This document shows, piece after piece, positions 1-31,968 of a DNA stretch of 37,218 bases. The translations under genes were made by a program, and so were the position numbers. Each line of letters starts with the position of its first letter. Position 1 is the stretch's first letter. This DNA is from a candidate division TA06 bacterium SM23_40 (GTDB taxonomy: Bacteria > LJUI01 > SM1-40), in NCBI GenBank assembly GCA_001303705.1, contig LJUI01000009.1, forward strand, positions 1 to 37,218. Direction: 5' to 3'. The notes under the pieces are model-generated. The model was not told the DNA's origin and did not search any database. It saw only the letters and a list, made by a program, of their open reading frames with translations.

Positions 1-665
1 ATGAGGATATCGTAGCGTCCGCGAATCCTGTGCAGCGCCGCCTCGATCGACGCTACCGGATCAGTGACAACGAGCTCAGGATCATCCGCTTCTACTCTCG
101 GGATCGCTCCGCCGGAGACAAGCCCCAGGATGGCAATGCGCACGCCCCCCACAGGGATACCGAATATGCGGGTAGCGCCGAAACGCTTGATGATCCAGCG
201 CTCGACAAATGGTGTCCGCCTGTCAGCATGGAAGATATTCGTCGACAGGAGAGGAAGTCGGTAGGCATCCCTCATATGGAGGAGGAAGTTACCGCCGAAT
301 GTCAGATCGAAGTGCCCGACGTTGATGGCCGCACACCCGAGAGCGCCGAGCGAGCGAGAGATGTATTCGGCGGCGAGACGCTTCCCCGGATCGTTCGACA
401 GGAATCCTCCCGAATCGACAACGAGGGTGTGGGAGTCTCGCGACGTCCTTTCCAGGACGAAGGTGGCCCTCCGGGCCATCCCGCCGTAGCGGCCGGACCG
501 TCACCCGCAGGGTATGAGGGCGCTCGCCATGTTCCCCGAGTAGAATATTTTCAGGTTCTCTTTTCGTTCCCCCGGCGAGACAGGCCGGCACCCGGCCATG
601 CTGCACGCCACAAACATGGCTCCGGCGATGACCGTGCTCAGGACCCGATTGATGCCTGATATCAT
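1..665 (-). CDS. UshA/5'-nucleotidase-fold (seleno)lipoprotein, paralog 1; 3' end runs off the window; probable Sec at TGA 501-503 (residue 55)
   Basis: ATG at 665 after a purine-rich RBS. Signal peptide with lipobox MAGC, then IFYSGNMASALIPCG-TGA. Manual translation continues in frame without a stop to the window edge (RSGRYGGMARRATFV..LVVDSGGF..AAINVGHFD..LPLLSTNI..IIKRFG..IAILGL) and is collinear with 3087..4511. Confidence 0.88.
464..478 (-). promoter_or_regulatory. Putative bacterial SECIS apical hairpin (UGGCCC-GGA-GGGCCA)
   Basis: 6-bp stem with a G-starting loop, beginning 22 nt after the in-frame UGA. Same position as in the paralog. Confidence 0.72.
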
Positions 666-753
666 CCTGCCCTCTTGACCCGGATACCTACGCCTATCCC
701 GAGATCGCTCCGTCGATGGCTGATCTTGAAAATAATCCCTTGGTCTGTTCGAC

Positions 754-813
754 TGTCTGTCACACCGCTCGACCAATTGTCGGACCGCCCGAATGTCCGT
801 CACACCGCTCGAC
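754..813. repeat. Three degenerate 20-bp tandem units (TGTCYGTCACACCGCTCGAC)
   Basis: 754-773 and 794-813 are 19/20 identical. The middle unit 774-793 keeps TGTC..ACCGC.CGA. Confidence 0.6.
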
Positions 814-880
814 TACCCGTTCTCCGTCTCGCTTTCACCGTACGCCTGCACAGCCAGGTCCGGGATCCCTGCTGCGGCGC

Positions 881-2773
881 TCAGGGTCTGAGGAAGACAG
901 CCTTGCGCACCTGTCGATCCCCATGCACATCGAGCACGTACAGATAGAGGCCACAGGCTACCCTCACGCCCTCCTCGTCCCGGCCATCCCACTCAAACCG
1001 GCACCTACCGGGTATGGCTTCGCTGGCCTCGATCGTCCGGATGAGCTGGCCGGAGATATTGTATACCCGTATCGCAGGCAGCGGCGAATCCTCCGGAAGA
1101 GAGCAATTGATGGTCGTCAGTTGAGAGAACGGATTGGGGCAGTTCTGCCCCAGTCGAAGCAACCCGTCCGGGTTCGCCGCCGGCTGCTGCTCTCCTTCGA
1201 CCCCCACGCCCCCCAGCACCTCGAAGTCATACGTCTCCACGGGGGCCCCGGGAGGGGTCCGCGCCACGTTCCCCGGCCTATCTCTGGCCTCCACGTAGTA
1301 TCGGATCACAGTGCCCGGAGCCTGGCCGGGGATCTCGCCGCGGAAGAGACTCCCGCCGACCGGCCGCATCGCCAGGCTGTCGAACGTCGGCTCCTCCCCT
1401 GCCCGGTACAGGAGGTCGGCATCGAGGAGGAGCGTGTTGTCGAAACCGGTGACCGTGACCGCATAGGGCCCGAGGGTGTCGTATGTATCGGGCGGGTGCG
1501 AGCACGCGGCGAGAACAGGCGGGGTAGTGTCGGGAGCTCCGTACTGATTGATCAGCAATCTGTTCCGCTGCGGGCTGTTCGCCACCAGAAGATCGAGATC
1601 ATGATCCCCGTCGACATCTGAGAAGGCCGCGCCCTGACTGAAAGAGATATCCTCGGGCAGCCACGTCTCCGTGCTATCAACATAGACTCCGGCTCCTACG
1701 TTTATGTACATGCTGTTCTGTTCGTACCGCGCCACAAACAGATCGAAATCCCCGTCTCCGTCAACATCTCCGATCGCACCATCTGTCGCCTCGTCGAAGA
1801 ATGGTACAGACGGAATCCGCCAGCTCGTCTCATCCCGATACGCTCCTGCACCCGTGTTGATGAGCAGCCGGACATCATCTGAGTAACGGGCGAAGTTCGC
1901 AACGAATAGATCGAGCAGCGAGTCGCCACTCACATCACCGATTCTGATGTGGTAGGTCGTGTCGGCGAGGGCGGGCATGCGTCTGCGGCTGTCGTCCACA
2001 AATAGGCCGCTTCCGTCATTGATGAGCAACCGATTCTGGCGGGCGTCGTTACCGATGACGAGATCGAGGTCACCGTCGCCTTCGACATCACCGACGGCGA
2101 CGGCGCGGCTCGGGTTGCTGGCCGCGGGAAGGAGGGAGTCCGTCAGATCGCTGAAGTAGCCCAGACCATCGTTGACGAGCAGTCGGTTCTGTTCGTCCCG
2201 ATTCACGACCGCGATGTCGATATCGCCGTCACCGTCTACATCTCCCAGGGCAGCGCCGAAACTCAGCCCGTCGGCCGGAGGCAGTCGGAGGGCGCTCTCC
2301 TCGGCGAAATATCCGGAGCCATCGTTGACGAACAGTCTGTTCTGGTAGCCAACATTTGCGACAAGGAGATCGATATCGCCATCGCCGTCGATGTCGCCCA
2401 GCGACCCGTCGCGACTCGGCTCATTGGGAGCACCGGGCATGCGCGTATCCGTCTCGTCGGAGAAGAATCCGTCGCCGTCGTTTATGAGGAGAAAATTCTT
2501 GGCCCCTGCAGGCACGTAGTTCGAAATGTACAGATCGAGATCGCCATCACCGTCAATGTCGCCGGGCTCGATATCGAAACTGCTGTCGTTATAGTCCGGA
2601 AGCCTGAGGCTCGTCTCATCGAGGAAATGCTCCTGTGCCGCGGCCGCCGACGCCAGCGCTACCGCCGATAAGAGCACCATCGCGGCACGTCTGCGGCGGG
2701 CCCGCGGAAGCGGAGCGCACGGCGGGCAGACTGCGAACCGCGCTCCCGTTTTCGGATTCATCATCTGGTCCAT
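881..2773 (-). CDS. Secreted FG-GAP/VCBS repeat (beta-propeller) protein with C-terminal FlgD-Ig/T9SS-like sorting domain
   Basis: About 7 repeats of GD(I/V)DGDGD(L/I)D(L/I)..N....N.L..NDG.G.F.D, a signal-like RRRRAAMVLLSAVALASAAAA, and a C-terminal NCPNPF..VYNISGQLIR..WDGRD..GLYLY..RK. Start uncertain: the ORF is open to 2944, and ATG 2773 follows GGAGG. Confidence 0.85.
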   Translation of the reverse strand: MDQMMNPKTGARFAVCPPCAPLPRARRRRAAMVLLSAVALASAAAAQEHFLDETSLRLPDYNDSSFDIEPGDIDGDGDLDLYISNYVPAGAKNFLLINDGDGFFSDETDTRMPGAPNEPSRDGSLGDIDGDGDIDLLVANVGYQNRLFVNDGSGYFAEESALRLPPADGLSFGAALGDVDGDGDIDIAVVNRDEQNRLLVNDGLGYFSDLTDSLLPAASNPSRAVAVGDVEGDGDLDLVIGNDARQNRLLINDGSGLFVDDSRRRMPALADTTYHIRIGDVSGDSLLDLFVANFARYSDDVRLLINTGAGAYRDETSWRIPSVPFFDEATDGAIGDVDGDGDFDLFVARYEQNSMYINVGAGVYVDSTETWLPEDISFSQGAAFSDVDGDHDLDLLVANSPQRNRLLINQYGAPDTTPPVLAACSHPPDTYDTLGPYAVTVTGFDNTLLLDADLLYRAGEEPTFDSLAMRPVGGSLFRGEIPGQAPGTVIRYYVEARDRPGNVARTPPGAPVETYDFEVLGGVGVEGEQQPAANPDGLLRLGQNCPNPFSQLTTINCSLPEDSPLPAIRVYNISGQLIRTIEASEAIPGRCRFEWDGRDEEGVRVACGLYLYVLDVHGDRQVRKAVFLRP

Positions 2774-3086
2774 GTGGACGAGGGCCTCCATCCGATATCG
2801 CCGGCGGCGTCTGTGGCACCCCGCCAGCAATCCTCCTGTGGGCCTCGTCCAGGAGTCGCCACGGATCCGAGCGCTGATCTGGTGCATGAACTCCCGGACC
2901 GAGCTGATCAGCAATGAGCGTGCCCGGTCTCGAAACTGAGACACATGACACGCTCACCAGGTTTCTCAGACAGTCCCGTCATCTCAGCGAGCTCACTGAG
3001 ATAGGCAAGTCCATATCTTCCTGAGCCCCGCGGCCTCAAAGGTGTGTTCGCCATAGAAGACTCACAGCCTGAGCGATCTCAGGAAC

Positions 3087-4511
3087 TCAGTGAGCTACTT
3101 TCCGTCTATCCTCCGGGAAGTCGAATTCGGGATCCCGCTCCTGATTGTGACACCTCACACAGGTGTACATCGTGATTATAGGCAGCTCTGGCATCAACCT
3201 CCCGTCCGGGAGCTTATGTCGCTCGACGCCCTGCTCCCGGTTCAGGAGGTGCCGCATGCCGAAGCCGTGACACGTCTCGCACTGGACGTTGGCCATCTCG
3301 GGCGTGGTGTCTACGCTCCAGTATCCGTTATACTGGCGGAATCCGGTTGTGTGGCATGGCAGACATTCGAACTTCTTCCCTTCGTCCTCTCTCGTGCTGG
3401 ATTCCAGAGATGCATATGCATCGGCGTGTGCCGTCGTCTTCCACTGTTCGTATTGAGCCTGATGACACGAGCCGCAGCGCTCAGCCCCGGCATATACTTC
3501 CTGTACGTTCTCCGGCCTGGGCTGATTGATCTGAGCTTCGTGCAGTCCTTCCTTGTACTCAGCAATGAGTGCAACCATCGTCGAGTCCTCGCCGATCGAC
3601 TCATCGAGCCTCTGGAGCTTGCCCTCCCAGGACGTCACGCGATTCCTCTCATCGAGGTTGAGCAGAAGGTTGCCCTCGTTCTTTCCCTGCCACCCCGGCT
3701 CGACCATGGGGACACCGCTCCGGAGTTCGGGCTCCAAAGTTTGACGAGATGTGCGTCCGCCCACGAGGAGGTCGATGCCCGCCACCAGCTCCACCAGGGA
3801 GTCACACTGGGCCGTCGACATCTGGACGAGCGCGATGATGACATCACACCCATTCGCCTTCAGCGTCTTCATCGCATCACGCGCCGCCTCGTAGGGGTCT
3901 CCAACCATAAGCTTTCGATCATCCTCGGGCTGGGGCGGCATCTGCTGTGGCGGGGTCAACCCGTTCAATCCCAGAATGCCGACGGTCACATCTGGAGCAC
4001 GCCAGAAGAAGAAGCGAGGCCTCCCGAATTTCTTGATGATGAACGGTTCGGCAAAGAGTTCTCCTGTATCTTCATAGTAGACGTTCGCGGACACATAAGG
4101 CAGTCTGTACCTGCTACGGAGATCAGAGAGAAGGCTCGCTCCCAGTACCGTGTCCTTGAACCCGACGTTAATGGCGTCGTACCCGATCATCTTCATCGCC
4201 CGCAGAAGGTACCTGACTTTGATCTGGCTCATCCAGTCGCCCACATGGATGAAGTTCCCGGCGTCGACGATGAGCTGGTACGCATCCCCGCGACTGCTCT
4301 CCCGAATGTAGGTGGCTCTCCGAGCCATCCCGCCGTCACGGCGCCCGTGTCACCCGCACGGCTCCAGGTAATTCATCATGTTCCCGGAGTAGAAGACCTG
4401 GATTCCCTTCTTGGCCTCTCCCCCTTCAGAAGGAGAGCAGGAGAGAAGACCCAATGCCAGCAGCGCTCCGACGACGACTGCCGCACATAAACGTGTGTAG
4501 ATCCGATGCAT
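3087..4511 (-). CDS. UshA-fold (seleno)lipoprotein fused to tetraheme cytochrome c554-like domain, 474 aa; probable Sec at TGA 4350-4352 (residue 54)
   Basis: ORFs 4350..4550 and 3087..4328 are in the same frame and join as YLEPCG-U-HGRRDGGMARRATYI. Start ATG 4511 (MHRIY.., lipobox LLSC). Nucleotidase-like blocks IVDAGN, YDAINVG, LPYVSAN, VGILGL. Four heme motifs: CGSCH, CLPCH, CETCH, CVRCH. Confidence 0.92.
4313..4327 (-). promoter_or_regulatory. Putative bacterial SECIS apical hairpin (UGGCUC-GGA-GAGCCA)
   Basis: Begins 22 nt after the UGA. A U-A pair replaces the C-G pair of the 464..478 hairpin. Confidence 0.72.
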
Positions 4512-4546
4512 AACACCTACCCTCAACCTGAGCCTCCCTGGACTGG

Positions 4547-5704
4547 TCATTCGACTGCGTGAGTGCGTACTCGCTGCCCTCCTTCGCGACGAGCATCGAT
4601 GTCTGCTCCCTGATGACTACTGTCGATCCCGTACTGCGCGAACAATCTCCCCCACGGCGTCCGCTCAAATTGACGGATGCGCCTGCGCCCAATGGTTGGA
4701 TACCACAGGAGGTCGTGATAGATAGTCGATGCAACCGGCGCCCAAACCCAGAGCGGCGAATGGAGCGCAAGTCGCTTGAGCGGTCGGAGGGACCCCCGCC
4801 TCAGCATCTGGTCGCCACGGATCACCAGGCTCCGCTCACTCCGGAACCCAAGATTGACGTCCTCGATGCTGTCGCCGACGATCTCGACCTGCCGTGGATC
4901 AGCAACGCCCAGCCCGCGTTCCTGGGCCATCGCCAGATAGGGAATGGAGAGTGGGTCGAACCCCATTATCTCCGCTGCGACGGCGTCGATAGCAACCGAA
5001 TCGTTGCTCGCCAGAATAACATTCGCCACAACCGGCCTCATCGTTCGGGGCCCCGCGCCATCGCCCGCGACCGTTCCATCCATGACTGCAAAGATGCCGG
5101 TGTGAAGCTCCCGCTGCATGTACAGCAGATCGACCAGCACCTCGTGAATGAACTCGTGGCCGTAGTGACGAACCTCCTTCAGGAGTCCGCCGAATGCGTT
5201 CTTGATCGCCCCCGTGGTGACCGAGTGTCCGTGTGTCTTCACTGTCGGCAGATGGAGCACGTTCGTCCCGACAAACATCTTCGGGATCTCGATCCCGTCG
5301 GGGAATATCCGGGGTAGCTTCAACAGCGGCGCCTTGAACTCATACCGGATCCATTCCACCTCAGTCAGGGGTATGAAATCGAGGCCGTATCGCTCAAGCA
5401 CCCCCGCCCACTTGTTCTGTCTGGCTCCCTCAATGGGATTGGTGACGACTGTCTTGTTCTCGACGGGCAACAGATGGTCAGGGCTGTACCCATCTTCGAG
5501 CATGGTTCTGACTACACCCTCGAGTTGCCACGGCTGGCTCGAGCAGGCCGGAAAGTAGAGCGTCCACGAGAGGTTGAGTTTGAGGATCGTGTCGTGTTGA
5601 CGGAGAAGAGCCTCGTCGTAGCGAACGAGCCGCATCAACCGGGCATAGTCATCTAGTACAGTCTCTGGCGAAGTGAAGAGCACCCCGACGATTGCGTTTG
5701 CCAT
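4547..5704 (-). CDS. DUF362 family protein (putative Fe-S/LarA-related, uncharacterised)
   Basis: Motifs LKLNLSW, LPTVKTHGHSVTTGAIKNAFG, VMDGTVAGDGAGP and ASNDSVAIDAVAAEIMGFDP. ATG at 5704 preferred over GTG at 5716. Confidence 0.85.
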   Translation of the reverse strand: MANAIVGVLFTSPETVLDDYARLMRLVRYDEALLRQHDTILKLNLSWTLYFPACSSQPWQLEGVVRTMLEDGYSPDHLLPVENKTVVTNPIEGARQNKWAGVLERYGLDFIPLTEVEWIRYEFKAPLLKLPRIFPDGIEIPKMFVGTNVLHLPTVKTHGHSVTTGAIKNAFGGLLKEVRHYGHEFIHEVLVDLLYMQRELHTGIFAVMDGTVAGDGAGPRTMRPVVANVILASNDSVAIDAVAAEIMGFDPLSIPYLAMAQERGLGVADPRQVEIVGDSIEDVNLGFRSERSLVIRGDQMLRRGSLRPLKRLALHSPLWVWAPVASTIYHDLLWYPTIGRRRIRQFERTPWGRLFAQYGIDSSHQGADIDARREGGQRVRTHAVE

Positions 5705-31401: not shown

Positions 31402-31968
31402 CTATTTTCCCTTTTCTTTCTTCTCTTCCTGCGCCTCTTCTCCCGTCTCCTTCTCGATCATATGGATCCCTTCGGGACTGGCCACGTATTCTTCATAGTC
31501 GAAGCCCGTGAATTCAGGACTTCGCTCGTTATGGCACTTCACGCACACCTCCGGCCCCGGAGGGATGATTAGCCCCTTTGAGATGGCCAGTTCTCGATCC
31601 TTCATCACCGACGCGTTCCAGTAGTTGCTCCCCGCTCCGTGACACGCCTCACATTGCACGTTCACCATCTGCGGGGTACTCTCCAGATCGACGAACCCGC
31701 CCTCCTCTCCGTACCCGGTGGTGTGACAAGAGAGACACATCTTATTAGCCTTCGCCTCGTCGTCCAGGCTGTCGATGGCGTGGGCATGGACCGTCTTCTC
31801 CCACGCAGCGAAGATATCGGAGTGGCACATCTTGCATTTCTTCTGACCGACGTAAGTCGCTGGTGCTTCCTCTTCCTCGGCTTGCTCAGCAACAAGACCG
31901 CCCCAAGCAACAAGGCAGAGGCCAACAGCCAGCACGACAGCCAGATACCTCAACAGAGCAGCGTGCAC
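31402..31968 (-). CDS. Periplasmic tetraheme cytochrome c554-like protein
   Basis: Signal peptide, YVG..KCKMCH, CLSCHTTG, VQCEACHG and CVKCH. Confidence 0.9.
   Translation of the reverse strand: MHAALLRYLAVVLAVGLCLVAWGGLVAEQAEEEEAPATYVGQKKCKMCHSDIFAAWEKTVHAHAIDSLDDEAKANKMCLSCHTTGYGEEGGFVDLESTPQMVNVQCEACHGAGSNYWNASVMKDRELAISKGLIIPPGPEVCVKCHNERSPEFTGFDYEEYVASPEGIHMIEKETGEEAQEEKKEKGK

Follow-up and report, generated by a model that had tools for sequence, protein, structure and literature searches.

The 37,218-nucleotide stretch analysed here (the window; contig LJUI01000009.1 of the candidate division TA06 bacterium SM23_40) carries two related genes with an in-frame UGA, and in each of them a small hairpin lies just downstream of that codon. 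Two questions are raised by this locus: whether the hairpin is a bacterial SECIS element, the UGA being read as selenocysteine (Sec), or a by-product of the codons in which it is written, and whether it is a motif of the whole lineage or of one gene family. From comparative analysis of the sequences, the hairpin is very probably the bacterial SECIS of two paralogous UshA-like 'PCGU' selenoprotein genes. The basis of this reading is the structure of the hairpin, its covariation, its restriction to Sec forms of the family, its agreement with the published consensus and the Sec machinery encoded in the genome. Binding of SelB and actual insertion of Sec at the UGA would be expected from these observations.

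The coordinates of the features are listed in Table 1. When translated with table 11, the complete gene is split into two ORFs (4350-4550 and 3087-4328), and the public gene call comprises only a 413-aa piece beginning after the UGA. Read through the UGA, the product begins like a lipoprotein, continues with a degenerate metallophosphoesterase domain and ends in a cytochrome c554-like domain with four hemes (4 CxxCH), and PCGU occupies residues 64-67. Pfam detected the cytochrome c554 part alone (PF13435, 4.3e-19). The best family for both genes was NCBIfam NF041198 (UshA_like_PCGU, 'UshA-like (seleno)protein'), whose profile alignment runs across the TGA and was matched by the complete copy at positions 8-272 and 344-518, in the N-terminal half as well as in the heme half. 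The curated cut-off of 275 bits was reached neither by the complete copy (251.5 bits) nor by the truncated copy (94.7 bits, 4.7e-27), which is the sister of the complete gene in the tree. Since NF041198 was the best match by far, the complete gene was treated as a divergent relative or member of the family despite its sub-cut-off score.

UshA-like proteins have been counted among the selenoprotein families since Zhang and Gladyshev 2008, where the entry reads 'COG0737, UshA-like, CxU' (PMC2398784), and the family appears in the relevant sections of two reviews (PMC9312934, PMC13188914). The gene described here has in common with NF041198 and these UshA-like proteins the CxU motif, the N-terminal degenerate metallophosphoesterase domain and the C-terminal multiheme domain; it differs in its score below the cut-off and in the presence of two copies 3.8 kb apart. 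A phylum-level search of the genome collection for relatives returned only the window's own genome, which seems to be the sole representative of its phylum there. The neighbouring genes, encoding an FG-GAP protein, a DUF362 protein, an alkaline phosphatase and a transglutaminase/TPR protein, offered no functional link. A third match to the heme half of NF041198 (profile positions 396-516, 97 bits) was found at 31510-31881 of the window (minus strand), in a 195-aa open frame with no internal stop. Another match to the family profile, on contig C100, was rejected as an ordinary UshA-type 5'-nucleotidase with an NDIHG site, without Cys or Sec and without the ARRA peptide.

Table 1. Coordinates of the two UshA-like genes, their hairpins and the other predicted Sec genes of the genome (spacing is the UGA-to-loop distance; C numbers are contigs)
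Feature	Location	Strand	Motif, sequence or loop	Spacing (nt)	Remarks
UshA-like (seleno)protein gene	3087..4550	(-)	EPCGUHG		487 codons; predicted Sec at codon 67; start codon predicted
In-frame UGA, predicted Sec codon	4350..4352	(-)			Cys codon in 30 aligned homologs, TGA in 44 others
Putative SECIS hairpin, first copy	4310..4331	(-)	GGG-A-UGGCUC-GGA-GAGCCA-CCU		-11.2 kcal/mol; covariation in homologs
Core stem-loop, first copy	4313-4327	(-)	loop GGA (4319-4321)	28	bulged A at 4328
Paralogous UshA-like selenoprotein gene (predicted)	3..665	(-)	IPCGURSG		3' part lost at contig start; start predicted at 665
In-frame UGA, predicted Sec codon, paralog	501..503	(-)
Putative SECIS hairpin, paralog copy	461..482	(-)	GGG-A-UGGCCC-GGA-GGGCCA-CCU		-13.3 kcal/mol
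Core stem-loop, paralog copy	464-478	(-)	loop GGA (470-472)	28
PrxU	C137		loop GGUC	17	371 bits, over cut-off
HdrA-like, three copies	C67, C86, C176		loop GGUC	27
MvhD/VhuD-like	C35		loop GGA	23
Omp28-related UxxC protein	C58		loop GGG	22
Omp28-related UxxC protein	C124		loop GUA	22
ResA/TlpA-like UxxC protein	C80		loop GGC	17
SelD	C58		loop GUU	33
Uncatalogued 'GWWCU' paralogs, three	C75 (two), C99		loops GGC, GGU, GGA	23-26

Both hairpins were found on the minus strand as the initial annotation had described them, with 22 nt between the UGA and the core stem in either copy. The codons of the stem are ATG GCT CGG AGA GCC ACC in the first copy (4313-4327) and ATG GCC CGG AGG GCC ACC in the paralog (464-478), and from this comparison the GCT/GCC and AGA/AGG exchanges are indeed silent and together replace a U-A pair with a C-G pair. 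Three of the six stem pairs are dictated by the amino-acid sequence M-A-R-R-A-T. The flanking GGG...CCU can lengthen each stem beyond a one-base bulge (a single A), and ViennaRNA gave the energies in Table 1 for the resulting 22-nt hairpins and -7.4 (first copy) and -9.5 kcal/mol (paralog) for the 6-bp cores by themselves. The hairpin was present in the minimum-energy fold of both 66-nt windows, which as wholes were not more stable than their shuffles (z = -0.08 and -1.65). Hairpins with a GGN triloop and a stem of 6 bp or more number 1397 across both strands of the genome, so a random TGA would have one at a spacing of 16-37 nt about 0.5% of the time. Searches against Rfam yielded no family matching the hairpin region, and three weak matches lay elsewhere (2039-2191).

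As quoted in PMC13188914, the bacterial SECIS consensus of Zhang and Gladyshev describes a stem-loop within the ORF, 3' of the UGA, with a loop of 3-9 nt that has a G in its first two positions (mostly N1-G[G|U]N-N2), a stem of 4-16 bp, a distance of 16-37 nt between UGA and loop, and an energy of -7.5 kcal/mol or lower. Both copies have a 3-nt loop, a stem of 6 contiguous bp (9 bp with the one-base bulge) and a spacing within the quoted range. The loop is GGA in both, as it is GGA or GGC in 42 of the 46 Sec homologs described below, and the energies of the extended hairpins lie below the limit, the 6-bp core of the first copy being marginally short of it. In comparison with the consensus nothing essential differs, except that the sequence of the PCGU-family hairpin shows unusual conservation across phyla, owing to its position over a conserved peptide. 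The UGA of Escherichia coli fdhF is likewise followed closely by a SECIS hairpin, whose loop opens with an unpaired G and whose stem has a bulged base in its 5' strand; in contrast to the triloop seen here the fdhF loop is longer, its sequence is unrelated and its spacing is smaller.

The initial annotation expected the pairing to be lost in homologs that encode Cys. With a 10-sequence alignment as query, 80 homologous loci from many phyla were taken from 567 relatives detected. Six of them (L029, L045, L048, L064, L071 and L082) did not match the C-x-[C/U]...GG pattern and were excluded, and together with the two window genes a comparison set of 46 Sec forms (TGA) and 30 Cys forms was obtained. 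At least six contiguous pairs, with a GGA or GGC loop, were present in 42 of the 46 Sec forms (seven pairs in 28), whereas none of the 30 Cys forms had five or more contiguous pairs at the homologous site (Fisher p = 3.6e-17), as had been expected. When forms encoding the same xARRAx peptide were compared, at least six pairs were found in 36/37 Sec and 0/4 Cys forms. Because just four Cys forms share this peptide, a second control was added, consisting of 80 ordinary phosphoesterases whose catalytic site is NDTHS, with neither Cys nor Sec at that place, 57 of which encode xARRAx. Only four of these 57 had at least six contiguous pairs, two of the four with a GGN loop, and the peptide-matched comparison became 36/37 Sec versus 4/61 non-Sec forms (p = 3.9e-21). 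A free search for any consensus-conforming hairpin of -7.0 kcal/mol or lower gave 40/46 Sec and 2/30 Cys forms.

Within the family the distance from UGA to loop is 28 nt in 34 sequences, 25 nt in 8 and 18-23 nt in the rest. The four Sec forms without the stem at the homologous site (L013, L046, L052 and L077) have another G-first hairpin 18-23 nt after the UGA, with the loops GGC, GGU, GGUCUA and GUCU, so that a candidate SECIS exists in all 46 Sec forms; this suggests that the element was relocated within the family in these four. A Sec form with a 7-bp stem (L038) and a Cys form with a broken stem (L035) were sisters in the tree and came from two contigs of one Eisenbacteria assembly. The homolog sequences are related, so the Sec and Cys counts are not independent. 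On a quick maximum-likelihood tree the Sec/Cys label switches 9 times, at least three of these switches being forced by well-supported branches. There were only three well-supported independent Sec/Cys contrasts, too few for a sign test to reach significance (p = 0.25); in 200 random pairings the hairpin sided with Sec in two or three of the contrasts and never against it.

Covariation was analysed in an alignment of the 46 Sec sequences with a 7-bp helix. In this helix 89.8% of the cells were paired, compared with 26-48% when the 3' partner was slid by 1-3 columns. The pair flagged by the initial annotation (columns 33-39) occurs as CG in 36 sequences, UA in 3 and AU, GC and UG in one each. 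Pair 30-42 was GC in 25, CG in 5, GU in 4, AU in 3, UG in 3 and UA in 1, and pair 28-44 was CG in 19, GC in 8 and UA in 1; double changes are seen at all three. The covariation score was 0.316 against a shuffle mean of 0.160, and none of 500 shuffles reached the observed value. RNAalifold recovered the same helix when no structure was given, with a weak consensus energy (-1.64 kcal/mol).

Selection on silent sites was apparent in the loop as well as in the stem. Of 45 Sec forms, 42 use CGG for the first Arg, compared with 6 of 30 Cys forms. At the third position of this codon the entropy is 0.26 bits, against 1.46 and 1.88 bits for the two Gly codons shortly before it; since these adjacent silent sites vary freely, the conservation of CGG reflects more than shared ancestry. 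In the 14 sequences that lack the seventh pair, both window copies included, G is the last letter of the preceding Gly codon in 12, which gives the bulged extension, whereas in the 28 sequences with the seventh pair the same position is mixed (C10, A7, G6, T5). This pattern is weaker evidence because a single Krumholzibacteriota clade contributes many of the bulged rows. The residues flanking ARRA also covary as the RNA pairing demands, Val going with Thr and CTN-encoded Leu with Ser or Gly, while TTG-encoded Leu or Met before ARRA goes with Thr, a GGG glycine codon and the bulge. The claim that a bacterial SECIS is kept here by compensatory silent changes is strongly supported by the covariation of silent sites and by the distribution of the stem among Sec and Cys forms.

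One other explanation is that the palindrome merely results from the GG-x-ARRA-T peptide and GC-rich codon usage and has no function at the RNA level. In its favour, the amino acids by themselves account for half of the pairs, Cys forms and ordinary 5'-nucleotidase-type enzymes also conserve the peptide, and a covariance model of the family hairpin matches those non-Sec genes at up to 33 bits. With the same peptide, however, the stem is rare in the ordinary enzymes and absent from the Cys forms, the silent sites covary, and the CGG loop codon is nearly fixed in Sec forms only. The peptide-matched controls have largely refuted this explanation already, and we regard it as highly improbable.

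It may also be considered that selection keeps the hairpin in Sec forms for a role independent of SelB, for example to pause the ribosome or to block the release factor at the UGA; the structure is placed where the entry channel of the ribosome would meet it, and contact with SelB is a prediction. Yet a mere roadblock would have no need of the two unpaired loop G's that are kept at a silent site, the loop starts with G[G/U] at 12/12 of the other Sec sites, as the SelB-based consensus requires, and a full-length selB is present, all of which makes such a role very unlikely. A third possibility is a genuine stop at the TGA or a disrupted gene, in which case the ORFs on either side would be independent or non-functional and the hairpin would be irrelevant. 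Standard gene calling, with its 413-aa product starting after the TGA, agrees with this. It hardly deserves credence, however, when the family profile spans the TGA, 46 genes that come from many phyla have TGA in the column of the Cys, two paralogs of the same genome keep it, and the upstream piece has a signal peptide and a conserved PCG motif.

The machinery that a SECIS would serve is encoded in the same genome (G000; 2.88 Mb, 60% G+C, 89.8% complete), which has a tRNA-Sec (C58:183-278), a full-length bacterial selB (391.9 bits; cut-off 242) and a selD (374 bits) that itself contains an in-frame TGA. Contig C58 brings three Sec-related genes together within positions 183-3232, the tRNA-Sec gene being adjoined by the Sec-containing selD (439-1365, TGA at 469) and an Omp28-related UxxC gene (TGA at 1934). 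A census of Sec genes was made by a hairpin-conditioned scan, a hairpin-independent scan of coding potential and profile searches. The coding-potential screen proposed 69 candidates for in-frame TGAs but missed both window genes, the ResA/TlpA-like gene on C80 and selD; since four true sites were missed, the census is incomplete.

The initial annotation had regarded the hairpin as the SECIS motif of the lineage and expected to see it in the other Sec genes. This was borne out in general form only. Each of the 12 other Sec sites listed in Table 1, including selD, three hdrA-like genes, an mvhD-like gene and prxU, has a generic consensus hairpin whose loop starts with G[G/U] 17-33 nt after the UGA, and the sequence of the PCGU-family hairpin occurs in none of them; fdhA (TIGR01591), also named in that expectation, was not found in the 89.8%-complete assembly. 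The motif likewise proved of little use for finding other selenoproteins. A covariance model (R1) built from the family element retrieved only the two window sites, which belong to its training set, at E<0.01, and no further selenoprotein gene; the next match, on C142 (E = 0.04), lacks a surrounding open frame and was rejected as a Sec gene. Nor can R1 serve as a Sec-specific detector, as Cys and non-Sec homologs match at 9-33 bits, compared with 44-46 bits for the window sites, because of coding homology. From the genome search and these cross-matches it follows that the element is specific to its gene family and that its general form is the ordinary bacterial one. The hairpin sequence is a family-specific element lying over the GG-x-ARRA-T/S peptide and common to homologs in many phyla, and what the lineage shares is the general published consensus, not the PCGU-family sequence. 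This is also a warning that a family-specific SECIS model is unfit as a genome-wide finder of selenoproteins.

Two further groups of ORFs came to light in the census. Three secreted paralogs with an in-frame TGA in the motif GW(W/Y)CU(A/G)G, at C75:2714 (+), C75:4207 (+) and C99:4152 (+) (L090-L092), show, 23-26 nt after the TGA, a stem of 7-10 bp whose triloop is GGC, GGU or GGA. They have no Pfam or NCBIfam match, the five closest database homologs are all 248 aa long, having been called from just past the TGA, and a Cys form was seen in none of ten database matches; judged by these features, they may represent an unlisted selenoprotein family. A NosD-like repeat ORF at C60:10271 (-) (L101) has an in-frame TGA in STGGUTGCGGGG and a 7-bp stem 17-20 nt downstream, whose loop is ambiguous (GAU or CGGGAU), and its status as a selenoprotein is uncertain.

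If the hairpin is the SECIS of the two PCGU genes, decoding would proceed as follows. SelB carrying GTP and Sec-tRNA(Sec) would bind the apical GGA triloop and the upper stem via its C-terminal domains and, once the ribosome had come to the UGA, 28 nt before the loop, SelB tethered in this way would deliver Sec-tRNA in place of release factor 2. The element is accommodated inside the coding sequence, on the codons of the conserved peptide G-G-(M/L/V)-A-R-R-A-(T/S/G), where the protein sequence fixes half of the pairs and selection at synonymous sites supplies the other half, the latter also retaining the CGG codon from which the two G's of the loop are derived.

Both the selenoprotein family and this kind of RNA element are already known, and knowledge of Sec decoding is not changed by the present finding. 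Its new content is modest, consisting of the peptide-matched controls, the occurrence of the flagged pair in all Watson-Crick alternatives (C-G, U-A, A-U and G-C) and a hint that RNA pairing shapes the residues flanking ARRA. For the organism, the gene model may be corrected from the 413-aa public fragment to a 487-residue selenoprotein that is predicted to be exported. The family offers a clean and controlled case of an RNA signal written in the silent sites of a conserved peptide. We tentatively propose, with slightly more doubt than confidence, that the SECIS is an old cross-phylum element exapted from the near-palindromic ARRA codons of ordinary 5'-nucleotidases and now feeding back on the protein. 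Should this be true, the ready-made half-stem could explain how several Sec/Cys switches (9 on the best tree, at least three forced) came about, and the element would join a small number of bacterial SECIS elements whose covariation suffices for defining an RNA family.
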